From the NCBI RefSeq assembly GCF_055900595.2, contig NZ_CM148325.1: 64,000 nt of DNA; one strand, 5' to 3'. The translations under genes and the position numbers were made by a program. Each line of letters starts with the position of its first letter. Positions within the stretch are counted from its first letter, which is position 1. Below are positions 25,843 through 63,180 of this stretch, one piece after another. The notes under the pieces are model-generated. The model worked only from the letters and a program-made list of their open reading frames with translations. It did no database searches and was not told the origin of the DNA.

Positions 25843-26568
25843 GTGAAATTTATGAAAAAGGCTAAAATACTTTCTGGCGTATTATTACTGTGCTTTTCGT
25901 CACCATTAATTTCTCAAGCTGCGACACTGGACGTACGTGGTGGATATCGTAGTGGAAGCCACGCCTATGAGACTCGACTCAAAGTCAGTGAGGGATGGCA
26001 AAATGGATGGTGGGCAAGCATGGAAAGTAATACCTGGAATACCATTCATGATAATAAAAAGGAAAATGCCGCACTCAATGATGTTCAGGTTGAAGTTAAT
26101 TACGCGATTAAACTTGATGATCAATGGACGGTGCGCCCGGGAATGTTAACGCATTTTAGCAGCAACGGCACACGCTACGGACCCTACGTAAAACTGTCCT
26201 GGGACGCGACAAAAGATCTTAATTTTGGCATTCGCTATCGTTACGACTGGAAAGCTTACCGACAACAAGACTTATCCGGTGAGATGTCTCGTGATAACGT
26301 TCATCGTTGGGATGGATATGTCACTTACCATATTAATAGTGATTTCACCTTCGCATGGCAAACGACGCTATACAGCAAACAAAACGATTATCGCTATGCA
26401 AACCATAAGAAATGGGCGACGGAAAATGCATTTGTTCTACAATACCATATGACGCCTGATATTACGCCATACATAGAATATGACTACCTTGACCGTCAGG
26501 GTGTTTATAACGGCAGAGATAATTTATCAGAAAACAGTTATCGCATTGGTGTGTCATTTAAACTGTAG
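25843..26568 (+). CDS. nanC: N-acetylneuraminic acid outer membrane channel (KdgM family porin)
   Basis: Signal peptide MKKAKILSGVLLLCFSSPLISQA then beta-barrel-like sequence ending in aromatic residue pattern (RIGVSFKL); start may be 25852. Confidence 0.8.
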   Translation: MKFMKKAKILSGVLLLCFSSPLISQAATLDVRGGYRSGSHAYETRLKVSEGWQNGWWASMESNTWNTIHDNKKENAALNDVQVEVNYAIKLDDQWTVRPGMLTHFSSNGTRYGPYVKLSWDATKDLNFGIRYRYDWKAYRQQDLSGEMSRDNVHRWDGYVTYHINSDFTFAWQTTLYSKQNDYRYANHKKWATENAFVLQYHMTPDITPYIEYDYLDRQGVYNGRDNLSENSYRIGVSFKL

Positions 26569-26587
26569 TAGACAGGAGACAGTCACA

Positions 26588-27694
26588 ATGAATAAAACAA
26601 TAACGGCGCTTGCTATCATGATGGCTTCATTTGCCGCAAACGCGTCTGTATTACCGGAAACTCCGGTGCCATTTAAAAGTGGTACCGGAGCAATTGATAA
26701 CGACACTGTCTACATTGGTTTAGGTAGCGCAGGTACGGCATGGTACAAGCTGGATACACAGGCCAAAGATAAAAAATGGACAGCGTTAGCTGCATTCCCT
26801 GGTGGGGCGAGAGATCAAGCAACCTCTGCATTTATTGATGGCAATCTGTACGTATTTGGCGGCATTGGCAAAAACAGCGAAGGCTTGACTCAGGTATTTA
26901 ATGACGTACACAAATACAACCCCAAAACCAATAGCTGGGTTAAATTGATGTCGCACGCGCCGATGGGCATGGCGGGCCATGTGACTTTTGTACACAACGG
27001 CAAGGCTTATGTTACTGGCGGTGTTAACCAAAATATCTTTAATGGCTATTTTGAAGATCTCAACGAAGCTGGAAAAGATTCAACCGCTATAGAGAAAATC
27101 AACGCCCACTATTTTGACAAAAAAGCAGAAGATTATTTCTTCAATAAGTTTCTGTTGTCTTTTGATCCCTCTACACAGCAATGGAGTTACGCTGGCGAAT
27201 CTCCCTGGTACGGGACGGCTGGTGCAGCGGTTGTGAATAAAGGCGATAAAACCTGGCTTATTAATGGTGAAGCCAAACCAGGACTACGAACGGATGCCGT
27301 ATTTGAACTTGATTTCACCGGTAATAATTTAAAATGGAATAAACTTGCTCCCGTCTCATCACCAGATGGCGTTGCTGGCGGTTTTGCGGGGATAAGCAAT
27401 GACTCACTTATATTTGCCGGAGGGGCCGGATTCAAAGGTTCACGAGAAAATTACCAGAACGGTAAGAACTATGCGCATGAAGGCCTGAAAAAATCATATA
27501 GCACTGATATTCATCTTTGGCATAACGGGAAATGGGATAAATCGGGCGAATTGTCGCAAGGTCGGGCCTACGGAGTATCATTGCCCTGGAATAATAGTCT
27601 ATTGATTATTGGCGGTGAAACTGCAGGCGGCAAAGCGGTAACGGATTCAGTATTGATCTCTGTGAAGGATAATAAAGTCACAGTGCAAAACTAA
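26588..27694 (+). CDS. nanM: N-acetylneuraminate epimerase/mutarotase (Kelch-repeat protein YjhT)
   Basis: Start at MNKTITALAIMMASFAANA (signal peptide) with RBS GGAGA upstream; 368 aa; nanC-nanM-nanS order. Confidence 0.8.
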   Translation: MNKTITALAIMMASFAANASVLPETPVPFKSGTGAIDNDTVYIGLGSAGTAWYKLDTQAKDKKWTALAAFPGGARDQATSAFIDGNLYVFGGIGKNSEGLTQVFNDVHKYNPKTNSWVKLMSHAPMGMAGHVTFVHNGKAYVTGGVNQNIFNGYFEDLNEAGKDSTAIEKINAHYFDKKAEDYFFNKFLLSFDPSTQQWSYAGESPWYGTAGAAVVNKGDKTWLINGEAKPGLRTDAVFELDFTGNNLKWNKLAPVSSPDGVAGGFAGISNDSLIFAGGAGFKGSRENYQNGKNYAHEGLKKSYSTDIHLWHNGKWDKSGELSQGRAYGVSLPWNNSLLIIGGETAGGKAVTDSVLISVKDNKVTVQN

Positions 27695-28559: not shown

Positions 28560-28791
28560 CGAACGCGCCTGATGAAGATCCAGACGATTTAAGCACGGGA
28601 TATTTCGGCTCAGCGTACCGGTCAGCGGAGAACTGGACGACGTCACTGCGAAGCAGTCATTTCAGCGCGGCAGCCCGTCGGGGGATTATTTCTGACAGGT
28701 TTGTAGAAGCAATTTTGCAGTTTTGGCGCGAAAGGTGAGCGTTCATTAATTTGATTTATTCGCATCCATCAACGCTTTTAACTGCTCCGGC

Positions 28792-29270
28792 GTGCGGCAC
28801 TATAATGGTTTTCACAACAAGGAGCCATTTTCTTATACCACTTTCAGAGACCATCCGCTTATGCCACCGCCCTCTACGCAACTGTTTGCAGAGCACCTTC
28901 CCACCGAGTGGATACAGCACCTCCTGACGCTTTCTGCTCATGCGACCATTTGTCGTCTTAACCTGAGCGCGGATGGCGAAGCGGGGATTAGCCTGCTGGC
29001 CCGCAGCGCTGTCACCCAGGAGCGCCAGCGCGTGGGGGCCCCCTGGTGGAATGGCTCTTCCGCCAGACCGCACAGACATGGGGCGCGGAACGTTACCTGA
29101 AGGATGACTGGCACGGCCTGCAACTTTTTGCCATTGATGGCGCACAGTTCAGGACACCTATGAACCTGAGTTGCGTGAATATTATGGCTCTGCCAACACA
29201 TCCACTGAGCGGCAGAGCGCCTACCCGGTCATGCGTCTGGTGGCGTTAATGAATCTGGGAATCACATTCG
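28792..29270 (+). pseudogene. Fragmented DDE-transposase-like remnant (IS element relic) at the left edge of the accessory island
   Basis: Three short consecutive ORFs in different frames (…LFAIDGAQFRTP…, …YPVMRLVALMNLGITFG) consistent with a frameshifted transposase fragment; family not determinable by eye. Confidence 0.35.
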
Positions 29271-29712: not shown

Positions 29713-30363
29713 ATGAATATCCGTCAATCATTACATGACCGAATCTATGCAGAATACCCTCAACAGGCTAAAGATATATTACTGTATTTCCCCACTTATG
29801 AAATTATGCCATCGACCATAAAAATGGTTATGATTAATGAGGTGGTAGCTATAACACCGCAAGAAGATTTTTATACACCAGAGTCTGGTTATTTTACGAC
29901 TGTCGCCCGACAGTTAGCGCTGGCTGGATTATCGGCAAGTAGTGGCGAAGTCTTACTCAACCATGGTATCTACCTGACCTCCGCACTGAAACTACCTAAA
30001 ACACAGATCACAGCCACACCCGCGGAGATCATTCTCTGGTCACCTATTGTAGAATGGGAGCTCGAACTCTTTGCCAATATAAAAGTTATTTTCGTTGGCG
30101 GCGATATCGCGCGAAAATGCCTTAACATCATCGCGAAAAAGCAAACACGTAAACATGCCATCCCTTCAACTCCGACGTACAAACTGATGAATAGCGAATT
30201 AGTCTGGAAAGGAATAAGCATACTTCCTGGATATATTCTTACCGGAAAAAACCTGCTCATTGAAAAGTCAAAAATCGAAATGAATGTCGAACAATTAAGA
30301 AAAGGAATTGCGATTTATCGCAATAGTAACAGTAACCATACGAATAATTCAGTTCATGAATAA
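29713..30363 (+). CDS. Hypothetical protein (216 aa), orphan gene in AT-rich DNA at island edge
   Basis: Uninterrupted ORF with plausible start context; no motif I can confidently assign. Confidence 0.45.
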   Translation: MNIRQSLHDRIYAEYPQQAKDILLYFPTYEIMPSTIKMVMINEVVAITPQEDFYTPESGYFTTVARQLALAGLSASSGEVLLNHGIYLTSALKLPKTQITATPAEIILWSPIVEWELELFANIKVIFVGGDIARKCLNIIAKKQTRKHAIPSTPTYKLMNSELVWKGISILPGYILTGKNLLIEKSKIEMNVEQLRKGIAIYRNSNSNHTNNSVHE

Positions 30364-30876: not shown

Positions 30877-32991
30877 TCAATCAGCCACTAATAGCGGACT
30901 AGGGATACCAGATGATGAAACAAACAGCCCTTTTACGGCACGGGTTGCAGCCACATGCAGTAACGCGCGCTCATTAAATAATGCATCACGCTGTTCAACG
31001 GGATCATCGGATGCTAATGCTTTTATTTCCGGCACAACGCCTTCGTTAATCCCCACCAGGAACACATACTGGAACTCAAGCCCTTTAATACGGTGCATCG
31101 TTGCAACTCGCACGCCTGGGCGTGCATCGCTGTCACCGCTATCATTGCCTAAATTAAATGTCTCAATTCCGGCGTCATTGAGTGCTGATGCGTAGCGGTC
31201 GCAAGCATGTTTAGTACGCGCAGTAATGCAGATATCCTGAGAACGAACCTGATTCGCCAGCAATGCCTGAATTTGCTTGACGAGCGTTGCAGCCTCTTCT
31301 TTGAAATCTGCCGCATGCGTAATCATGGGCTTTTCCCCGTGCAGTAATGACAAATAATCATTACTGGTATCCGCTTCGCCATCGAGGTTATCAACCTTCA
31401 CACCAGTTAACAGCCCAACAGCAAATTGACGCGTCTCTTCTGTGGTCCGATAGTTAATCTTCAATTTTTTACTGCGACGACCACGGACGTTAATACCACA
31501 CTGACCAAGAACGACCTTATTGCGATAAATACGCTGATGCCCATCCCCGACAATAAACAGATCGTTGGGCGACTCGGGAACCAGGCTGCGAATAAGAGTA
31601 AATGCCGGGGCACCGATATCTTGAGCTTCATCGACGACAATACTGCTATAAGGTAGTTGGACCTGCTTTTCTTTAAACAGAACAATAGCCTCATGCATGG
31701 CATCGCCCATTTCGCGCAGTTTGGCACGCGCCATTTGTGCTCTGAATTCTTCGAAAACTGGCCAGATTTTCGCCCGTTGAATACGGGATAACGCTGTACC
31801 ACGTCCAACCCGGCTGACTTTGAGGTATTCCTCCCGGGTGTAAACCGCATTTGGCTGGACAACGCGTTGCCACTCTTCAGCATAGAAATTGTCAGGTAGC
31901 CCCAGTTCGGCAGGTGCCTGCTGCAAGGCATAGTTCCAGCATTTACGTCGCCCTTCATCGCTGTCGTATACCACGCGGAAATCATAACCGTGGCGTTTTA
32001 GTTGGTCGCTCATCCAGGCATCAATGTTAACGACGTCAATACGCGCCATCTCTTCTCGCGTACACAACCGCTGGAGATTAGCGCGAATATCTGCCGCCAG
32101 GTTACGCGTAAAGGTCGTGAAAAGTACCTTCTTACCGGGTTTATCTACCAGACGCTGAGATAACCACCGCGCACGGTGCATTGCAACAACCGTTTTCCCT
32201 GTACCTGCACCGCCCAGTACTCGTACCGGACCATTAGCGGGCGACTCCACCAGTTTTCGCTGGCTCGGGTGCAGAAATACACGCCATTTTTCTAAAGGCG
32301 CATTAAGCATCTGCAATAGTTCCTGTTCATTTTCAACGACATGGAAGCGACGTTTACTTCGTTCAATCGCCTCCATAAAGTCGTTGGTATCAACAGGCTC
32401 ATCACGATGATCGTTAAACTCTTCCAGCACTTCCTGGTAATCCAGCCCTTCTGCCAGCCAGTGCAGAGGTTCCCAGGCTTCTGCTGGCATTATGCTTTCA
32501 AGTTGATTAAGCCCGGCTTCATCGGTAAGCGCCATCACCTGATCAATAAAGACAGGCGGCACACCCAGGGCCAGAATCTGTTCCGCGCTGTAAGCTGCGA
32601 AGAGTTTCGGTTTATCAACCACCGTTTCCGCTGCCGGTTTGATATAGCTAATATCAATGACCTGAATCGCGCCAGTAACCGGGTGAATCGAACAATCATG
32701 CCGCCGCGCCCAGTCATATGCTTCGTCGTGTTTATCCACCCACATCAGCATATACAGAGCACCCTGTTCAGGTTTCAGAACAATGCCGCGATAAGTTTGA
32801 TCGATTCGCACCGAATGGACATTTTTACTGCGCGCATCGTGGATCTTTTCATAGTTAAGTCCATTACTGGTCGGGTCCTGACGGAATTTGGAGATGAATT
32901 CCTGCACCTTTTTTTGCTGTGCTTTTGGGATCCGCGCGAATGCGCCCAGAAAACCATCAGAAAGTGCCACCTTGGGCGTTTGCACCGTCAT
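30877..32991 (-). CDS. UvrD/PcrA-like superfamily 1 helicase with ~230-aa N-terminal extension (YjhR-like); last gene of the DISARM-like operon
   Basis: Walker A VLGGAGTGKTVVAMHRA, Walker B IVVDEAQDI, C-terminal UvrD_C-like motif ATMHRIKGLEFQYVFLVG; start overlaps upstream stop (ATGA at 32988-32991). Confidence 0.8.
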   Translation of the reverse strand: MTVQTPKVALSDGFLGAFARIPKAQQKKVQEFISKFRQDPTSNGLNYEKIHDARSKNVHSVRIDQTYRGIVLKPEQGALYMLMWVDKHDEAYDWARRHDCSIHPVTGAIQVIDISYIKPAAETVVDKPKLFAAYSAEQILALGVPPVFIDQVMALTDEAGLNQLESIMPAEAWEPLHWLAEGLDYQEVLEEFNDHRDEPVDTNDFMEAIERSKRRFHVVENEQELLQMLNAPLEKWRVFLHPSQRKLVESPANGPVRVLGGAGTGKTVVAMHRARWLSQRLVDKPGKKVLFTTFTRNLAADIRANLQRLCTREEMARIDVVNIDAWMSDQLKRHGYDFRVVYDSDEGRRKCWNYALQQAPAELGLPDNFYAEEWQRVVQPNAVYTREEYLKVSRVGRGTALSRIQRAKIWPVFEEFRAQMARAKLREMGDAMHEAIVLFKEKQVQLPYSSIVVDEAQDIGAPAFTLIRSLVPESPNDLFIVGDGHQRIYRNKVVLGQCGINVRGRRSKKLKINYRTTEETRQFAVGLLTGVKVDNLDGEADTSNDYLSLLHGEKPMITHAADFKEEAATLVKQIQALLANQVRSQDICITARTKHACDRYASALNDAGIETFNLGNDSGDSDARPGVRVATMHRIKGLEFQYVFLVGINEGVVPEIKALASDDPVEQRDALFNERALLHVAATRAVKGLFVSSSGIPSPLLVAD

Positions 32992-35900
32992 TTGTCACCT
33001 CCGGACAGATGTTGCAATGTAATTTCGTCAATTGGCCCGAATGCAACGTGCCAACCCCTGGTTGTGAATAATGGAATAAATTCTTGATTATCAATAATCA
33101 ATGCCCATTTTTGTGATGGCCAGGCGAGATCGGCTTCCGCAATAATTTCACCTTCATCATTTTGCAATTCGTAGCCGAGAGTCGGCGCAGAGAGAGAATG
33201 AGACTGAAGCAACGCGATCTCTTCAGCGCTTAATAAGCCAAACTCAATAATCTCAGCCCAACTTTCATCAGTCTCTGGTACTGCCTCTGGCGTTGCCGTA
33301 ACTTTAACGTCAACGCTTTCCTGCGGTAAATGCACGGCTTTACGGCTGGTAAAGGTCATATCCGGCAGGAACTGTAACAGGTTTACCAGTCGCCAGAAGC
33401 CATTGAGTCCCGCTTCATAACCGTCATCCTGCGTATAGCGATCGTCAAAACAGATATGCAAACGCAGCCAGCTGCGCATTTGTGCGACACTGGTCGTCGG
33501 TTTAATGGCTTGTTGTGGCAACACCGAAGCCAGCTCAATAAATTGCTGCGATGAGTTACAGCTATCGAGTAAACCACCAAAGACAAACGGTTCGTCTGGC
33601 AAAAGCTCTGCTAGCCGCCAGGCTGGCGCGTTTTCCTGCATTTCATAGGCATACTTTTGTTTCGTTCCCGCGTCCTGTGACTTCTTCACATCCAACCACA
33701 CCCAGGCATGTGCAGCAGCCATTCTCTGCCATAACTGCGTTCTTCCGCCCGGATCGGCGAGATAATCCAGCAGCAGTGCAAAACTGTTGCGTTCCCGGAA
33801 CGACGCTTCAAGGGCCGCAAAGTTGGTATCGTGAAACAGGTTATAAAACTTAGGCTGTTTCATATCCGGGTTATGCCCAAGCCCCAGGACATCCTGAACA
33901 TGTTTAAGCCCAGGCTCTTTGAGATCGGCCCACGTGACTGTCCACACCCAGAAATTATCGCTATCCCGAATCGCCTGGCGTTTTTGCACATCCTCTGCGA
34001 CGCTATTTTTGTGAAACGCAAAGCCATCAAGGAAAATAGCTACCGGTTTAATGGCATCAGACTGCATAAGCGGATATAGCACGTAATCCGGGCGACAAGG
34101 GATCCCCACTGCCTCTTTAGCGCCTAAATCCACCTGAGCTTTAAGATGCCAGCTCATCATCGGTTCGCTGCGGGTGTTAATAATCCACCCAGCGCCCTGA
34201 TGCGCGTAACTGCGACTGACAATCAGGTTTTTATTTTCTTGCAGGCAGCTAATAAACCGTTTTTCCAGCTCACTGCCCATCATGGCTTCGAGGGAAATGT
34301 TTTTGATGGAATCAATTACCCGTATCGAATCTCTTGCCTGCAAAATTTTCGCCAGCAAGAGACGCGCCTGATCGCGGGAGACATACTTCATGCGCCCACG
34401 GTCACGGTAAGCGTAAACGCAACGATAACAACCATCTTTATGCGTATCATGGTTGCAACTGCATTCCACTATCGCCTGATAGGCCAGTTCAAGTAATTTC
34501 AGCAAATTGTCGGGAGTGCGCATCAGCTCTTTAAGAGAACCAGTCCCCCCCGGGACGGTATCGTAAATCACCAGATACTGCCGCCAGGATTCGCCTTCAT
34601 TTTCCGGCTCGCGGTACACAACGCCTTTCAGGTGATCGACATTCCCCTTGAAGTAATGTTTAAGGCCGAGCTGGATCGCCGCCCCAAGAGAAGCCTCCAC
34701 GACACGGTCATTACTGTAACTGCTTACCGGGAGCAGAATTCGCAACGCTTCTGACTCCAGCTGGCGATAGAGATAGAGATAATCTTCGAACTTCGCCTTT
34801 TCCGGTTCCGTGCGATATTTGCAGCTCAAATCATGACGTGGTTCATGATCGCGAGGACGCTGTACCATGCCGCACCCCAGGCAAACTTTAAACCCGGTTC
34901 GCTTCTTCGCTTCTCCGGCAATCATCAACTCATTGGCATCATCCGCCATTTTGCCGAAGTTGATATCCCGCAGGGTGACTTTGCTTAAAAATTCAAAACC
35001 AAACGGAACTTCGCCTTCCTCAATCGCGTATGCCGCCGATACATCTTCTTTTTCGAAACTAACCAATAGCTGACGCTGGAAGAAAGCAGGTTCACGGCTG
35101 TCGCTCTCGTCGCTGATCTGGCTATCACGTGCGCTGGCGCGGGCATACACCTGGCGAAGTTTCAGCAGCGTGGTTTTTTGTCCGGCGTCGGCCCACCCCG
35201 GTGTGCCACATTTCGGGCAATATTTATGCTGGTCGCCCGTCTGGTCGATATTTTCGCTGTAGTTACAGTGGCTACAGATACGCCAGTTCTCCGGCTCAGA
35301 GACCTTCAGGTCTATCTGCTCAATTTCAACTTTATGCCCACCGGCATAGAAATTATTCAGCGGAGCCAGCTCAGCCAGCGCCGTTGATGCCGGGCGTTCA
35401 TATTCGAAAGTGGTGTTTTGATATTCACGCGCTTCCCCGCCTTCTTTACGCCGCCAGAGCACAGAACGTAACGTAATACCGGCTTCCGGAAAGGCGTAGT
35501 TAGGCAGCAGACCTTCATCCGTGAGGAAATTCAGCGTCTGCTTATTGTTGATTTGATTGACTAGCGCCATCAGCGCCTGCCGTTCTGAAGTTAACTCGCG
35601 CATATCGCTGTCAAAGTTTTGATCGCGCGGCGCGTTCTCCAGCTTATCGATACTGCGCTTGAGTTTATCGATGCGTGAACGCAGAGATTTGCGATCTTCC
35701 ACCAGCAGTTTTAACGCCTCTTCGATACGCTGCACCAGAGAGCGTTGTCCTGGCGCGCCCTGAAGATAAGACAACAACTGTTGGCGAGTTTCTGCGGCAA
35801 GATCGGGGAAGATCGCCGTAAATTGTGCAGCAATCTCCGCATGATGCTGTTCGATATATCTCAGTAAGTTATACGGAAAACCCGATTTACGCCCGAACTC

Positions 35901-38900
35901 CAGCTCATCCAGCATCTGTTTGACGTTTTTACAGATAGCGGATTCTGGTACACCGGTTTTCACCCAGTTATCCATACAAAAAGCTGCCAGCTGGCGTTCG
36001 AGAATAGCCGTTGCATTGAGGAAGACGCCAGGAGCCTGCACCTGGCCCTGCATCATCTCCAGCGGTTCTTCAAAGAAAAACTGATCGTGCGGGTTCCCTT
36101 CTGCCACGGTAATGTTTAACGCGTTACCATCTTTACGACCGGCGCGACCAATACGCTGCAAGTAGTTGGCCTGAGCAGGTGGGACAGAACAGAGTAAAAC
36201 GGTGGAAAGATCCCCAACGTCAATACCCATCTCCAGCGTCGGTGTTGCCGACAACAGGTTGATATTCCACGGTTGGTTGCCGCGGTAGAACGATTTTTCG
36301 GTGGCTTCGCGATCTTCACGGCTAAGCAGCCCCGTGTGTTCTGCGCCCTGCACGCGCGCGATGTCCATGTTCTCCCAACGCCAGGTCGCCATATTGTCGA
36401 CTTCCTGGTAACGACCTTCACAACGTAAAGAGAGACAAGGCGCATTACGCCACTGCCAGCCTTGATCGGCCGGAGCCCGGACAACCTCACGGCAACATGA
36501 ACAATTAAGCTGAACGACGTCACGGCTCACCACCAGCGCAGAAGGCACCAGTCCCCAGGCTTCACGCCCTTTGGTGTCAAAATCTTTTACTACTCCGGCT
36601 ATTTTCAACGCCGTAAACAGGCGTCGTAACACTGTTTCCGCAACGCTACTGATAAACAGATTATTGCCGTTACTCAGCGTGCGATTGATCCAATGCTGAT
36701 ACCAACTGGGGTTAGACTTCGCGCCAATCAGGCGATGGAAACCATTAATTTTTTCAAACGACGCATAAGCCGGTTTACGCGTTTTCGGACCGATAGAAGG
36801 CATATAGCGCGAGGTACGCTCTTTTTGCGTCATCATAAAGGTCGTGCCATCACGGCGATAACTTTCGAACGTCGGATGCATAACGGCCCCGGCCTGGCGT
36901 TGATACCAAATAACCCCCAGCGCCAGGTGCGCGACCTGCTCGACGCTCACACCGGACATCTCATCACCCAGCTCTTCACAAAGCTGTTGATGCAGGGCGG
37001 TAATTGCCGGATTAAAGCGTTCTTTATCCACTCCGGCAACGGCATAACCGGTGGCTTCCAGCGTACGTCCGATACGCGCGCGCAGGGTAAATTCGCTGTA
37101 CACCTCCCAGTCGAGGCGCAGGGAAACCAGCTCCGGCAGATCGGAGTTCTCCGCCAGTTTGCCTTCATTTTTCAGTGTCTGATAATCATTCAGCCACTGC
37201 ATATTTGGTGCGATGAAGTTCGCTGCAAAATGAGCATCGTCCGGTGAACGTTCACGCGTTTGTTGGCAAACACGCGCCGCGAACGCATCCAGCGGTAATG
37301 TCTCTTTTTCGCCAAGAACACTGGCGATTTGCCCACGAATCATCAGCGGCCAGGTACGGGCAGTAAAGAAGCTGGCACGATGCGCGGCGTCTTGTACCGA
37401 GTCAGAAAACGTAATCAGCTTTTTATGTTCGTTGAACTGGCTGCCATAAAGCTGGTGAATCATCACCGCCGACAGACTGGCAGCCCGTGACCCCAGAATC
37501 GAAATCCCCTGTTTGCTGTTGCAGTACGGGCATTCATTAGCAAACTCCAGCTCGTCCTTACGCTCTTTGAGCATATCCGGGATCAGTACCTGCAACAGTT
37601 CCGTATGACCGCAATGTCCACACTGGACGCTGGACTGTCGGTTCAGTTTCAGACAGATAGGGCACAGTTTCTGGTGTGCGCCACTGACCGCTTTTTCGTT
37701 GTTATCCGGGAAAGCAAGGACGATGGAGCGCCCTTTTTCAAAGAACTGGCGATAAATGCCGTCGAGGTCTGTTTCCAGCTGAACGCTTTGCCCATGACGC
37801 AGGCTGGCCCAGCCGGTTGCGTGGCAGTCACGGCAGTGGATAACCGGCAAATAGTGTTCGCGATCTTCCACCGCCACATCATCGGCAAACACCAGTCTCG
37901 GCGTTTTCGCCACGCTGGCGACCAGACGACGCATCTCACGAAGCCACAACTGGGAACGCAGTTGCACAAACGGCAACACCGGGCGCGCTTTCTTCGCCTG
38001 GAGACGTTTTTGCCGATCGTGTTCCGTTTCCGGTACTTCGAGACGTGCCTGCGCGATCAGCGCCAGAATGCTTTGCAGCACGCGTCGGGCATGGTCGGCG
38101 CTTTCTGCCAGCATGACCTGGAGATTTTCCAGACACTCTCGTTCAGAGAGGATCCCGCCTTGCAGATCATGGAGTAAGACATGCATCACGCTGTGGCGGC
38201 GTAACAGTGACCCCAGCGCAATACGCTTTTCGCGCCCGTCGTCGCTCTCCAGATCGTCCGGGAGTTGCAAGTCGCTGTCGGAGAACCACAAAGGGATTTG
38301 TCCGTTGAGATACGCCACCGGGGTAGCGTAACTCTGCGGGTCCAGCGCCGAAGCGACCTCCGGCCCCGGATACTGACTGTACGCAATGGCGTAATCCTGC
38401 AAGTACTCCGCTGCCGTGTAGCGATCTTCGCGAATAACGGCGTCATCGGTAAACGGCTGGTCAAAGATTGTTTTTGCGTAATCGAGCAGTTGCCCCAGTT
38501 CGTCGCCGACGGTAGCTGATGTCCCGACGCAGGCGAATCGTTGGTTATCCACACCTATGTGATGCTTCAGACGTCGCACCAGACAGGCCAGATCCGACCC
38601 TTGCGCGCCATCAAACGTATGCAATTCATCCACGACCAGGTAACGCAATGAACCGGGCTGGTTGTAACGCCAGAGCGGCTGATCGCCAGGGCGCATCAGT
38701 AGGTAGTCGAGCATTTTGTAGTTGGTCAACAGGATGTCCGGCGGGCTTTCGCGCAGCGTGTGCTTACAGGTAATGACCTTTTCTGCCGACATTTTTTTGC
38801 TGGGTTCGATTTCGCTGTCGCCGACAAACAATCCGACGGTCACCTTGCCATGCAGTTGTGGATCGCTGGCGATGGTTTTGGCGAAACGGCTGGCCTGATC

Positions 38901-39329
38901 GGTTGCCAGGGCGTTCATCGGGTAGATGATAATTGCTTTAACCCCGGCTTGTGACGCGCCCGCGCAGTGGTTGAGCAGCGGGAACATAAAGCATTCTGTT
39001 TTACCGGAGCCGGTACCGGTAGCGACCAGTGTCGGCTGTGGCGCGTCGCATCCCAGACGCTGAAATGCCCGGGCCTGATGCGCGTGCGGCGGGAACGGCA
39101 GCGTCAGATTAGGGAAAAAATTCAGCGGTAAGTCACTTTTACGAAACGGCAACTGGGCGGAAAGGTATGGTCCTTTCAGCAGCGTTTCGGGCTGGGCCAG
39201 AAATTGCTCCAGCATTGAGACATTATCGTTATTCTCACCGTTAAACAGCGGGCTGTTTAGCGGGAACGCCGCCCGTAAAAAGGCGGCAACGCTGTCGGCG
39301 ACCTGCCGACTGACAACGGACGGCAACAT
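32988..39329 (-). CDS. Giant (2113 aa) DEAH-box helicase with C-terminal Cys-rich Zn-ribbon region (DUF1998/MrfA-like); fused DrmA+DrmB-type or DruE-like protein
   Basis: Motif I LVATGTGSGKTECFMFPLL, motif II YLVVDELHTF, motif VI QRIGRAGRKDG; Cys clusters CSHCNYSEN...CPKCG, CLGCGMV, CSCNHDTHKDGCYRC; start overlaps upstream stop by 1 nt (TGATG at 39327-39331). Confidence 0.8.
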   Translation of the reverse strand: MLPSVVSRQVADSVAAFLRAAFPLNSPLFNGENNDNVSMLEQFLAQPETLLKGPYLSAQLPFRKSDLPLNFFPNLTLPFPPHAHQARAFQRLGCDAPQPTLVATGTGSGKTECFMFPLLNHCAGASQAGVKAIIIYPMNALATDQASRFAKTIASDPQLHGKVTVGLFVGDSEIEPSKKMSAEKVITCKHTLRESPPDILLTNYKMLDYLLMRPGDQPLWRYNQPGSLRYLVVDELHTFDGAQGSDLACLVRRLKHHIGVDNQRFACVGTSATVGDELGQLLDYAKTIFDQPFTDDAVIREDRYTAAEYLQDYAIAYSQYPGPEVASALDPQSYATPVAYLNGQIPLWFSDSDLQLPDDLESDDGREKRIALGSLLRRHSVMHVLLHDLQGGILSERECLENLQVMLAESADHARRVLQSILALIAQARLEVPETEHDRQKRLQAKKARPVLPFVQLRSQLWLREMRRLVASVAKTPRLVFADDVAVEDREHYLPVIHCRDCHATGWASLRHGQSVQLETDLDGIYRQFFEKGRSIVLAFPDNNEKAVSGAHQKLCPICLKLNRQSSVQCGHCGHTELLQVLIPDMLKERKDELEFANECPYCNSKQGISILGSRAASLSAVMIHQLYGSQFNEHKKLITFSDSVQDAAHRASFFTARTWPLMIRGQIASVLGEKETLPLDAFAARVCQQTRERSPDDAHFAANFIAPNMQWLNDYQTLKNEGKLAENSDLPELVSLRLDWEVYSEFTLRARIGRTLEATGYAVAGVDKERFNPAITALHQQLCEELGDEMSGVSVEQVAHLALGVIWYQRQAGAVMHPTFESYRRDGTTFMMTQKERTSRYMPSIGPKTRKPAYASFEKINGFHRLIGAKSNPSWYQHWINRTLSNGNNLFISSVAETVLRRLFTALKIAGVVKDFDTKGREAWGLVPSALVVSRDVVQLNCSCCREVVRAPADQGWQWRNAPCLSLRCEGRYQEVDNMATWRWENMDIARVQGAEHTGLLSREDREATEKSFYRGNQPWNINLLSATPTLEMGIDVGDLSTVLLCSVPPAQANYLQRIGRAGRKDGNALNITVAEGNPHDQFFFEEPLEMMQGQVQAPGVFLNATAILERQLAAFCMDNWVKTGVPESAICKNVKQMLDELEFGRKSGFPYNLLRYIEQHHAEIAAQFTAIFPDLAAETRQQLLSYLQGAPGQRSLVQRIEEALKLLVEDRKSLRSRIDKLKRSIDKLENAPRDQNFDSDMRELTSERQALMALVNQINNKQTLNFLTDEGLLPNYAFPEAGITLRSVLWRRKEGGEAREYQNTTFEYERPASTALAELAPLNNFYAGGHKVEIEQIDLKVSEPENWRICSHCNYSENIDQTGDQHKYCPKCGTPGWADAGQKTTLLKLRQVYARASARDSQISDESDSREPAFFQRQLLVSFEKEDVSAAYAIEEGEVPFGFEFLSKVTLRDINFGKMADDANELMIAGEAKKRTGFKVCLGCGMVQRPRDHEPRHDLSCKYRTEPEKAKFEDYLYLYRQLESEALRILLPVSSYSNDRVVEASLGAAIQLGLKHYFKGNVDHLKGVVYREPENEGESWRQYLVIYDTVPGGTGSLKELMRTPDNLLKLLELAYQAIVECSCNHDTHKDGCYRCVYAYRDRGRMKYVSRDQARLLLAKILQARDSIRVIDSIKNISLEAMMGSELEKRFISCLQENKNLIVSRSYAHQGAGWIINTRSEPMMSWHLKAQVDLGAKEAVGIPCRPDYVLYPLMQSDAIKPVAIFLDGFAFHKNSVAEDVQKRQAIRDSDNFWVWTVTWADLKEPGLKHVQDVLGLGHNPDMKQPKFYNLFHDTNFAALEASFRERNSFALLLDYLADPGGRTQLWQRMAAAHAWVWLDVKKSQDAGTKQKYAYEMQENAPAWRLAELLPDEPFVFGGLLDSCNSSQQFIELASVLPQQAIKPTTSVAQMRSWLRLHICFDDRYTQDDGYEAGLNGFWRLVNLLQFLPDMTFTSRKAVHLPQESVDVKVTATPEAVPETDESWAEIIEFGLLSAEEIALLQSHSLSAPTLGYELQNDEGEIIAEADLAWPSQKWALIIDNQEFIPLFTTRGWHVAFGPIDEITLQHLSGGDK

Positions 39330-60822: not shown

Positions 60823-60903
60823 CATATGCTATGGTTAGCCTTATATTTAAAACTTTCCTCATACGGGTGAAGGTTAAAGCTTGGTAGATAGGTTACAGTC
60901 ACA

Positions 60904-61513
60904 ATGAATAAAGCAATAACGGTGCTTGCTATAATGATGGCTTCATTTTCCGTAAATGCGTATGTATTACCGGAAACGCCTGTGCCATTTAAAAGTGGTA
61001 CCGGAGCAATTGATAACAACACTGTCTACATTGGTTTAGGTAGCGCAGGTACGGCATGGTACAAGCTGGAGAAACAGACCAAAGATAAAAAAATGGACAG
61101 CGTTAGCTGCATTTCCTGGTGGACCGAGAGATCAAGCAACTTCTGCATTTATTGATGGCAATCTGTATGTGTTTGACGGCATTGGCAAAAACAGTGAGGG
61201 CTTGACTCAGGTATTTAATGACGTTCACAAATACAACCTCAAAACCAATAGCTGGGTTAAATTGATGTCGCACGCGCCGATGGGCATGGCGGGTCATGTG
61301 ACATTTGTACACAACGGCAAGGCTTATGTTACTGGCGGTGTTAACCAGAATATCTTCAATGGCTATTTTGAAGATCTTAACGAAGCTGGAAAAGATTCAG
61401 CGTACCGGTCACCGGAGAACTGGACGACGGCACTGCGAAGCAGTCATTTCAGTCGGGGGATGATTGTAGACAAATTTGTTGACGCTATTTTGCGGTTTTG
61501 GCGTGAAGGGTGA
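60904..61513 (+). pseudogene. Degraded nanM paralogue fused to a nanS-like 3' tail (frameshifted nanM'-nanS' remnant)
   Basis: 60904-61399 aligns by eye to nanM 26588-27082 with substitutions and an extra A in a poly-A run (frameshift); at 61400 it switches to sequence matching the nanS 3' end (28614-28738), including a 12-bp deletion. Confidence 0.7.
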
Positions 61514-61520
61514 GCGTTCA

Positions 61521-62171
61521 TTAATTTGATTTATTCGCATCCATCAACGCTTTTAACTGCTCCGGCGAAAACGGTGGTTTGCGTCGGTGCAACATCGCAT
61601 GGCAATTAGGGCACACAGGAAGCAAATCATTAACTGGACCCAGCTGGTAATCCTCTTTAATGGCTGAAAGCGGGACCAGGTGATGCACATGGATAAAGCC
61701 TTCAGCGATATCACCATAGATCTTCACCAGATCAACGCCGCATACTTTGCACTGGCATCCATGATGTTCGACCGCTTTATCTCGGGCCTTTTTATCGCGT
61801 TCATAGCGGTTTACTGTCACTTTTATCGCCGCACCTTCAAGGTATGTCTCCTGCGACGGCAACTCATCCGGGAACAGAACGTCGGCTATGGGAGCCGCAG
61901 CGGCTTTATCCTGATGAATATGAAATCCCTGCTCTATGAGTAGTTTGACGCATTTAGATTTTATTCCGCCGGTGAAATCCGCAGGGGTAAATTGCGTCCC
62001 CGTCATCAATGTCGCTGCGATGCCAGCAATCGCCTTCGAGGGGTAACGTCGGCCATGATATTCAATCTCATACAACCGCGCAGGCTGGAACTGATGAGTT
62101 TCTCCCGCATCCCATAAATGGATAGCTTCGATGATATACCGCCGCGGAAGATGATCAGGGAGTTTATTCAT
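61521..62171 (-). CDS. HNH endonuclease-domain protein (216 aa) with N-terminal ~130-aa domain of unknown type
   Basis: C-terminal HNH/Zn-finger motif CQCKVCG...HVHHLVPLS...CPNCH; the last 40 bp of the gene are also present as a copy at 28744-28792. Confidence 0.65.
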   Translation of the reverse strand: MNKLPDHLPRRYIIEAIHLWDAGETHQFQPARLYEIEYHGRRYPSKAIAGIAATLMTGTQFTPADFTGGIKSKCVKLLIEQGFHIHQDKAAAAPIADVLFPDELPSQETYLEGAAIKVTVNRYERDKKARDKAVEHHGCQCKVCGVDLVKIYGDIAEGFIHVHHLVPLSAIKEDYQLGPVNDLLPVCPNCHAMLHRRKPPFSPEQLKALMDANKSN

Positions 62172-62250
62172 GGAGAATGTCCTTATACGTTCTCAGAACA
62201 GGCAGCAAAAAAACAAATGAGATCAAGGTAATATATCTTCACTTGCAGGC

Positions 62251-63180
62251 TTGAACAGCAGAAAATTTGCGAGCATGATCGCAATTATTTCACTGCCAGG
62301 GATATCAATGGCTTCCAGTAAATCGCTACAGCAGGCAATTGCCAATATAAAAATCTGGCACAAGGGTGAACAGCGCGCGCCGCATAAGCCATTGTTATTG
62401 CTATACGTATTAGCGGGATACCTGAATGGACATCCGCGCCTTTTCGATTATGGCTCGGAAATCTACGAACCTCTGCACAGTTTACTGGAACGTTTTGGGC
62501 CACAGCGTTCACAGTACCGACCTGATATGCCGTTCTGGCGATTACAAGGCGACGGATTCTGGCAATTACACAATGCCGAGCTTTGCTCAACAGCAGGGAG
62601 CAGCCGACAACCGCCAGTGAAGGAACTGAACGAATACCACGTTGCAGGCGGTTTCGATGAACAGCACTACGCCCTGGTAACCGGCAATAAAAAACTCATC
62701 AATACTCTGGCGCAACAGATACTCGAAGCGCACTTCACCGAGAGTATTCAGGAAGAAATTGCTGACGAGCTGGGTTTTGATCTCCAGCAAATCCGTAAAC
62801 AGCGCGACCCGTTATTTCGCAAAAATGTATTACGCGCTTATAAATACCAGTGCGCGATATGTGGCTTTAATATGCGCCACGATGACACCACCGTCGCGTT
62901 GGAAGCGGCGCATATAAAATGGAAACAGCACGGCGGTCCTTGTGAAATTCCTAATGGCCTGGCGCTTTGCGCAATTCACCATAAAGCCTTTGATAAAGGA
63001 TCGATTGGCCTGGATGAAAATATGCGGGTACTGGTCTCGGATGCGGTAAACGGCGGAGGGATCGTTGAGAAACTATTCTGGGATTTTGACGGGAAAACTA
63101 TTGCGTTGCCGCAGGTGCGTAAAAATTACCCTTATGAGGGGTTTGTGGAGTGGCATCGGAAAGAGGTTTTTAGGGGGTGA
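62251..63180 (+). CDS. HNH endonuclease-domain protein (309 aa) with ~200-aa N-terminal domain
   Basis: HNH motif CAICGFNMRHDDTTVALEAAHIKWKQHGG...NGLALCAIHHKAFD; divergent from the 216-aa HNH gene across an 80-bp intergenic region. Confidence 0.65.
   Translation: MNSRKFASMIAIISLPGISMASSKSLQQAIANIKIWHKGEQRAPHKPLLLLYVLAGYLNGHPRLFDYGSEIYEPLHSLLERFGPQRSQYRPDMPFWRLQGDGFWQLHNAELCSTAGSSRQPPVKELNEYHVAGGFDEQHYALVTGNKKLINTLAQQILEAHFTESIQEEIADELGFDLQQIRKQRDPLFRKNVLRAYKYQCAICGFNMRHDDTTVALEAAHIKWKQHGGPCEIPNGLALCAIHHKAFDKGSIGLDENMRVLVSDAVNGGGIVEKLFWDFDGKTIALPQVRKNYPYEGFVEWHRKEVFRG

Follow-up and report, generated by a model that had tools for sequence, protein, structure and literature searches.

Two divergently transcribed genes, each encoding a protein with an HNH nuclease domain, lie near the right-hand end of a 64,000-nucleotide stretch of DNA (NCBI RefSeq assembly GCF_055900595.2, contig NZ_CM148325.1; hereafter, the window). 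Their position beside a large defence island raises the question of what the two proteins recognise, and whether they serve restriction jointly or each on its own. An earlier interpretation, made from the letters of the window only (the sequence-only reading), proposed that both might be modification-dependent, type IV-like restriction enzymes. The present analysis indicated that the locus probably encodes two autonomous modification-dependent restriction nucleases, which are placed back to back and often travel together. Gene B, on the plus strand, is by its sequence a member of an already published kind, the EcoWI family of enzymes that combine a sulfur-binding domain (SBD) with an HNH domain, and is predicted to depend on phosphorothioate (PT) modification of its target DNA. 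Gene A, on the minus strand, represents a large family in which the N-terminal 'head' of ScoMcrA is joined to an HNH domain of the McrA type.

The product of gene B matched the NCBIfam profile NF045808 ('phosphorothioated DNA-binding restriction endonuclease') over profile positions 2-284 of 284, with a score of 437.9 bits against a cut-off of 180 bits. Its N-terminal 140 residues aligned to the crystallised SBD of ScoMcrA (5zmo, 5zmm), Pfam HNH_2 was found at residues 201-255 (E 1.3e-9), and the TagI structure 6ghs also matched the HNH_2 core. Homologues of gene B were already labelled with PF26340 (DNA-SBD_ScoMcrA) and PF13391 (HNH_2). In the SBD alignment, the sulfur pocket of gene B is formed by H26, K27, M74, and P75, with F76 and W77 in the core. 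According to the ScoMcrA paper, H116 and P165 are the most conserved SBD residues and F166/W167 make up the hydrophobic core, while most homologues carry a lysine at position 117, an R117K variant retained binding, and a Y164M variant bound PT-modified DNA better. The H/K/M/P pocket of gene B fits these published tolerance rules. Through membership of gene B in a characterised family and its match to the SBD, the type IV interpretation offered by the sequence-only reading is established for this gene; for gene A, as set out below, it is plausible only.

The 33.4-kDa SBD-HNH enzyme EcoWI of E. coli is a Mg2+-requiring dimer that cuts GpsAAC/GpsTTC at N7/N6 and that, acting alone, blocks transformation by a dnd+ plasmid (PMC7461809). 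At the same locus, the chromosome of E. coli W encodes an intact gene B protein of 290 amino acids (33.31 kDa), to which the window protein is identical in 285 of 290 residues (98%). Residues 1-155 are identical, and all five substitutions occur in the linker and the HNH half. Because it is 98% identical to that protein and unchanged in the SBD-aligned region, gene B was treated as an EcoWI-type allele, and we infer from this identity that its exact specificity would be the same. Within E. coli, ratios of nonsynonymous to synonymous substitution rates (dN/dS) of 0.11-0.28 indicated purifying selection on gene B where it is intact. These ratios, like those for gene A below, apply within E. coli and are based on few substitutions; dS was saturated between genera.

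In the mechanism proposed for gene B, the SBD would dock on the Rp sulfur of PT-modified DNA originating from foreign dnd systems, most likely in a GpsAAC/GpsTTC context, and the C-terminal HNH_2 domains of a homodimer would cut both strands a few bases away. Incoming PT-modified plasmids and phages would thus be destroyed, while the PT-free host genome would be spared.

The open reading frames (ORFs) listed for the locus were 61521..62171 (minus strand, 216 amino acids) and 62251..63180 (plus strand, 309 amino acids). Both end in HNH/zinc-finger motifs, as the sequence-only reading had noted; Pfam assigned HNH to gene A and HNH_2 to gene B, with the motifs intact. The 309-residue protein proved to be over-called. 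In strain SCPM-O-B-12142, whose locus is 99.7% identical, the RefSeq gene B product has 290 amino acids and begins at the ATG equivalent to window position 62308, the full NF045808 profile aligned to gene B with residue 25 of the 309-residue form as its starting point, and orthologues from Citrobacter and Klebsiella begin within a few codons of the same ATG. An AGGGA Shine-Dalgarno sequence lies 5 nucleotides 5' of ATG 62308; TTG 62251, the over-called start, has none and sits in a conserved -35-like TTGAAC. With gene B starting at ATG 62308, the spacer between the two genes therefore extends from 62172 to 62307, which lengthens the shared promoter region, earlier given as 80 bp, to 136 bp.

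The N-terminal domains, which the sequence-only reading could not assign, can now be named as a ScoMcrA_N head in gene A and the SBD in gene B. The assignments are based on matches to PDB structures, on NCBIfam, and on Pfam labels already attached to homologues; our own Pfam scan, with a release that included neither PF26345 nor PF26340, showed the HNH domains only. Residues 24-87 of gene A matched residues 29-93 of ScoMcrA, the N-terminal head of that enzyme, and residues 123-198 matched the HNH domain of EcoKMcrA (6ghc), to which domain the similarity was limited. Pfam HNH was found at residues 141-197. Zinc-binding and catalytic residues C141, C144, H163, H164, C187, N189, C190, H191, and H195 were invariant across 26 gene A homologues, yielding the pattern CxxC...HH...CPNCH...H. 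On the surface of the head, H26, Y34, Y43, K46, S72, and K73 are invariant. Homologues carry PF26345 together with PF01844, and more than 7,200 clusters at 90% identity matched gene A, most of them of ~210 amino acids and composed of PF26345 plus HNH. A dN/dS of 0.14-0.18 between E. coli alleles indicated purifying selection where the gene is intact. Genes of defence systems, namely hsdR, Mrr_N-HNH, Wadjet, GmrSD_N, and SymE, adjoin relatives of gene A. Gene A can be assigned, as a putative member, to the modular kind of HNH restriction enzymes.

Among 50,697 phage records, no full-length relative of gene A (at least 80% covered) was found, and its HNH half alone occurred in 8 records. Together with the setting of the family in chromosomal defence islands, this result disfavours the homing-endonuclease role that had been kept open for the pair. 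The layout of gene A would correspond to a 'reader-linker-cutter' design, in which the ScoMcrA_N head is connected by a flexible, acidic linker of ~30 residues to an HNH domain of the EcoKMcrA type. We infer for the head a role in DNA targeting or in the sensing of a modification, and for gene A a defence role as a type IV-like restriction enzyme, the target modification of which would probably differ from that of gene B.

Evidence for this view was sought in the partners with which the head and the HNH module of gene A are combined. A head-only profile retrieved 3,073 clusters at 50% identity, with proteins ranging from 90 to more than 1,500 amino acids. When 84 of the longer clusters were scanned against Pfam, the fusion partners were HNH (35), HNH_2 (18), EVE (11), NOV_C (9), McrB-type AAA_5 (6), nSTAND3 (5), DUF3427 (4), SRA (2), MrcB_N (2), and AspBHI_N (1). 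Nearly all of these partners are readers and nucleases of restriction type, and ten of the scanned proteins, when compared with PADLOC, matched its REase_II, methyl-directed mREase_II, and mREase_IV models. Conversely, in 99 relatives of the gene A HNH module, the N-terminus was a head in 21, Mrr_N-like in 6, and of another type in 67, some of these EVE-like. Such N-terminal variety on a constant HNH domain is the 'variable reader plus constant cutter' pattern of type IV enzymes, and it is because of this modular pattern that the head of the minimal head-HNH form is proposed to be its targeting module. A local jackhmmer search that started from the SBDs of the E. coli protein and of ScoMcrA found an SBD fused to the head in 0 of the 150 best head-domain cluster representatives.

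A head-HNH paralogue was also observed in Citrobacter freundii (locus L110, 4001-8651), ~2.5 kb from dnd-like genes with Aminotran_5, DNA_S_mod_dnd_assoc_4, and DndD-like SMC/AAA_15 domains. Targeting of PT-modified DNA by the gene A family would be self-toxic in such a genome, which hints that the head does not read the PT marks of that host.

Genes A and B were found as a divergent pair with a spacer of 136-180 bp in E. coli, three Citrobacter lineages, K. aerogenes, and Klebsiella sp. R445. Since at least five different flanking contexts were represented (Table 1), the two genes travel or are maintained together as a cassette. Each gene also occurs without the other. Solo copies of gene A were seen in Klebsiella pneumoniae, Atlantibacter, Pseudescherichia, Pantoea, Shewanella, and others, and solo copies of gene B in Salmonella, E. 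hormaechei, and E. coli W, where only a stub of gene A is left. In C. portucalensis, Raoultella, and Enterobacter, the place of gene A beside gene B is taken by an Mrr_N-HNH gene. Among 5,426 complete E. coli genomes, in which a gene covered for at least 80% was called full-length, gene A was present in 1,238 (23%), gene B in 1,706 (31%), and both together in 325, which is near, and a little under, the ~389 predicted for independent occurrence. With intact solo copies of either gene and this frequency of the pair, the distribution is not that of an obligate two-gene system. Genes A and B would rather form a recurrent cassette of Enterobacteriaceae, a mini 'immigration control' unit in which each enzyme acts alone.

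Other arrangements of related genes were observed in the same survey. At loci L029 (5680-6378), L090 (3260-3919), L018, and L031, from C. portucalensis, K. aerogenes, Enterobacter, and Raoultella, an SBD-HNH gene is followed by an Mrr_N-HNH gene and then hsdR, which gives clusters of two or three adjacent HNH genes of restriction type. An integrative element of E. coli (loci L087-L089), with genes for an integrase, AbiEi, TraI_2, and ArdC, carries a second, diverged head-HNH/SBD-HNH pair on it or at its edge, next to a GlgS-family gene.

The spacer upstream of gene B contains a conserved block of 29 nucleotides, TTTGCGAGCAT(G/C)ATCGCAATTATTT, that includes an inverted repeat ~25 nucleotides 5' of the gene B ATG; the rest of the spacer was poorly conserved between genera. 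The block was identical, or differed by one mismatch, upstream of gene B in all genera fetched (E. coli, Citrobacter, Klebsiella, Raoultella, Enterobacter, and Salmonella), and was also present at loci without gene A; the inverted repeat within it was conserved perfectly. The inverted repeat overlaps a -10-like CATGAT (62274-62279), which follows the -35-like TTGAAC (62251-62256) after 17 nucleotides. A sigma-70 consensus scan of the intergenic region returned nothing that reached the threshold. Conservation being the basis of the assignment, the block is probably a promoter/operator of gene B.

In E. coli, a trace of the locus was detected in 5,044 of the 5,426 genomes (93%), irrespective of island content and always beside nanC-nanM-nanS'. 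From this constant position it follows that the locus belongs to the ancestral chromosome and is not cargo of the island. The idea that the genes are core genes of all E. coli, which the sequence-only reading had named as counter-evidence, is literally not borne out, traces being present in 93% of genomes and full-length copies of genes A and B in the 23% and 31% given above. Various states of decay were found. In EC93 and E. coli W, the 5' part of gene A and its promoter side are deleted, while gene B is kept and followed by McrBC; this deletion is clean and lies between ACAGG(A/C)AGCAAA microhomologies (locus L004, 4134-4238, compared with window ~61607-62228). O26:H11 has kept gene A, with gene B truncated after ~50 codons, an O157-like strain has Zorya, a nanM fragment, and gene B and no gene A, and in AR_0149 only the 3' half of gene B is left.

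K-12-type strains retain a frameshifted stub of gene B and the small protein YthB (MNKLPAHLSRQNCKIASTNL..., in full MNKLPAHLSRQNCKIASTNLSEIIPRRAAVLK; locus L003, 6045-6143). In YthB, codons 1-5 of gene A are joined to a short ORF that overlaps the gene A stop codon (61444..61521 on the minus strand of the window) and whose conservation is confined to E. coli. YthB is therefore a deletion-fusion relic of gene A. A tagged form of YthB was detected in K-12, from which it follows that the promoter and ribosome-binding site of gene A are functional. As the deletion in EC93 and W is distinct from that in K-12-type strains, at least three separate losses of gene A have taken place in E. coli. Genes A and B were lost independently of each other in this species.

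These data bear on the main rival to two autonomous enzymes, in which genes A and B would be a split ScoMcrA that restricts PT-modified DNA as a single system, either as a heteromer or by sequential action. ScoMcrA indeed holds head, SBD, SRA, and HNH in a single polypeptide, the divergent pair recurs with different flanks each time, and the members of the second, deeply diverged pair lie within 4 kb on the integrative element of E. coli. However, EcoWI-type enzymes act alone as homodimers both in vitro and in vivo, E. coli W combines gene B with a mere stub of gene A, and intact solo genes exist in both directions. Moreover, the two genes were not co-retained in E. coli (325 versus ~389), the search of the 150 best head-domain representatives yielded no SBD, and the upstream block tracks gene B with or without gene A. 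We therefore consider a split system unlikely. Two other alternatives concern gene A and appear less likely still. A non-defence function, as a selfish or homing HNH enzyme, a toxin, or a DNA-repair or housekeeping nuclease in a variable region, would accord with the many roles of HNH domains, with the match of PHROG HNH families to the C-terminal half, with one relative located after lon-hupB in a context that is not island-like, and with the 58%-identical paralogue on the integrative element. It is made improbable by the lack of full-length relatives in the phage records mentioned above (with the HNH half in 8), by a context without intron, intein, or immunity gene, and by the restriction-type readers and nucleases to which the head is fused; the patchy occurrence of gene A (23% of E. 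coli) and its repeated deletion argue against a housekeeping role in particular. A generic role of the head in DNA binding or regulation, with gene A as a sequence- or structure-specific nuclease that is restrained otherwise, for example by low expression or by sensing of a phage protein, is similarly improbable. Co-occurrence of the head with bona fide readers (EVE, SRA, and SBD) in larger relatives suggests such an accessory role, but the minimal head-HNH form has no other restraining domain and no conserved immunity partner, and in sister architectures the equivalent position is occupied by known readers (EVE-like and Mrr_N).

Several observations weigh against the interpretation of the locus as two autonomous, modification-dependent enzymes. 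The proposed function of the head as a 'reader' is drawn from architecture, and in larger multi-domain relatives the head usually stands beside a recognised reader, so that its role might be accessory, or one of clamping or oligomerisation. Gene B is the divergent neighbour of the gene A orthologue in roughly half of the enterobacterial lineages that were sampled. This link, seen from the gene A side, is far above chance and leaves room for functional coupling, as does the second pair on the integrative element, with identities of 58% (head-HNH) and 51% (SBD-HNH) and again within 4 kb. For gene B, equation of EcoWI with the E. coli W protein was based on the name and size of the enzyme, the paper giving no accession, and the search for dnd or ssp PT-writing genes, with none among the ORFs screened, was limited to the window.

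With these points taken into account, two autonomous nucleases, gene B reading PT-modified DNA and gene A another target, remain the probable explanation. A wider proposal is put forward more tentatively, as possible though short of an even chance: the head may be a so-far unrecognised reader of a modification, or of a PT-related feature, and ~210-residue head-HNH proteins may constitute a large type IV family, the E. coli representative of which was lost from K-12, with YthB as its relic, and which is repeatedly packaged with the PT-dependent SBD-HNH enzyme as a two-gene 'modified-DNA exclusion' cassette.

Table 1. Positions of features at the HNH gene pair in the window, and settings of the pair in different genomes.
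Feature	Position	Strand	Description
Gene A	61521..62171	-	216-amino-acid nuclease with ScoMcrA_N head and McrA-type HNH; RefSeq orthologue WP_001403934, labelled 'HNH endonuclease'
Gene A head domain, residues 1-90	61902..62171	-	ScoMcrA_N; alpha-beta-beta-alpha-alpha-beta; putative DNA or modification reader
Gene A linker, residues 91-121	61809..61901	-	acidic, predicted disordered; predicted local distance difference test (pLDDT) <50, isoelectric point 4.05
Gene A HNH, residues 122-216	61524..61808	-	beta-beta-alpha-Me HNH with CxxC...CxxC zinc finger
Gene B	62308..63180	+	290-amino-acid SBD-HNH protein, predicted PT-dependent restriction endonuclease; RefSeq orthologue WP_001403935
Gene B sulfur-binding domain	62317..62733	+	phmmer alignment to ScoMcrA SBD structures 5zmo/5zmm
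Gene B HNH_2 catalytic core	62851..63015	+	C182, C185, H202, N216, C221, H224/H225
Divergent intergenic region	62172..62307		136 bp; set by the corrected gene B start
Inverted repeat TTGCGA-N6-TCGCAA	62267..62284	+	inside the conserved 29-nucleotide block (~62265-62293)
25-codon ORF	61444..61521	-	overlaps gene A stop (TAATG); counterpart of the C-terminal part of K-12 YthB
Gene A relic	28746-28790	-	resident second copy, last ~15 codons (45 nucleotides); left island junction, alignment break
A/B pair in Citrobacter sp. Cu233 and FP75			beside a methyltransferase gene and tnaA
A/B pair in C. farmeri			beside an FGGY kinase gene and type VI secretion system genes
A/B pair in Klebsiella aerogenes			beside an Mrr_N-HNH gene and hsdR
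A/B pair in Klebsiella sp. R445			between Wadjet and SymE
A/B pair in E. coli			nan setting

The defence island next to the pair spans ~32 kb and is bracketed by direct repeats (26533-27070 corresponding to 60849-61387, and 28677-28792 to 61452-61567), which contain the 5' part of nanM and the small ORF with the 3' end of gene A. The sequence-only reading placed the pair immediately outside the island, and the intact genes do lie beyond the right-hand repeat, with the nuance that a 3' relic of gene A is present at the left junction (Table 1). Since the left repeat ends 45 nucleotides into this former gene A 3' end, the island probably arrived by recombination within the locus, and the arrangement suggests homologous or Campbell-type recombination. 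A DISARM-like/type IIG module is carried by the island together with Druantia III and Zorya II.

A frameshifted second nanM fragment (60904-61513) lies between zorE and gene A and is a kelch-repeat pseudogene in the matching strain; the same fragment lies between zorE and gene B in the O157-like strain without gene A. A 216-amino-acid ORF at 29713-30363 was considered as a duplicate of gene A and rejected, as its translation is unrelated and matched no family. In the DISARM-like module (32988-39329, minus strand), residues 2021-2096 of a 2,113-amino-acid DruE-like helicase matched the ZorE HNH model; this C-terminal stretch would be another HNH nuclease in the window. Downstream of gene B, a perfect palindrome with 21-bp arms (63733-63776; GTTATTCACTGATTATATTAT-ca-ATAATATAATCAGTGAATAAC) precedes a long minus-strand gene that leaves the window and corresponds to a 678-amino-acid hypothetical protein in the matching strain.

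As one more allele of a characterised PT-dependent enzyme, gene B predicts that dnd-modified DNA is excluded by the strain. A more useful lead is offered by gene A, which represents a minimal form of the crystallised ScoMcrA head and is cheap to test, being a single protein of 24 kDa in a species of which K-12 naturally lacks both genes. If its head were a modification reader, a specificity could be named for thousands of genes now labelled 'HNH endonuclease', and the protein might become a new enzyme for epigenomic mapping, as EcoWI is for phosphorothioates. The comparison between genomes also documents the decay, through independent deletions, of a chromosomal restriction locus next to nanS, and its use by large defence islands as a landing pad.

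Among known systems, EcoWI (PMC7461809; PMC9521924) is closest to gene B, with which it shares the two-domain architecture, the species, the chromosomal locus, and NF045808, at a predicted mass of 33.2 kDa for the 290 residues of gene B versus 33.4 kDa for EcoWI. The presumed link to the exact EcoWI clone runs through the 98%-identical E. coli W orthologue, and W differs from the window in having no intact head-HNH neighbour. Other SBD-HNH enzymes (SprMcrA, Ksp11411I, Bsp305I, Mae9806I, and Sau43800I) have this architecture and predicted PT dependence in common with gene B, but are only ~28% identical to EcoWI and have other metal preferences and cleavage distances. ScoMcrA of Streptomyces coelicolor (5ZMM) is one chain of 560 amino acids with the order head-SBD-SRA-HNH, whereas in the window the head and the SBD belong to separate genes, the first ending in HNH and the second in HNH_2, and SRA is missing from both; neither gene A nor gene B unites head, SBD, SRA, and HNH in one polypeptide as a ScoMcrA orthologue would. 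EcoKMcrA, the e14-encoded McrA of K-12 (6GHC; 277 amino acids versus 216 for gene A), has an HNH domain that resembles that of gene A, but its NEco N-terminus, which binds 5-methylcytosine and 5-hydroxymethylcytosine, is unrelated to the head, and gene A, which carries no NEco domain, falls outside the EcoKMcrA family. The Mrr_N-HNH genes of C. portucalensis, Raoultella, Enterobacter, and K. aerogenes, finally, encode HNH domains 54-55% identical to residues 97-216 of gene A and share its neighbourhood with gene B orthologues and hsdR; they differ from gene A in carrying an Mrr_N winged helix in place of the head, to which it proved unrelated in a profile-profile comparison (hhalign probability 0.3%), and in standing in tandem with gene B instead of divergent from it.

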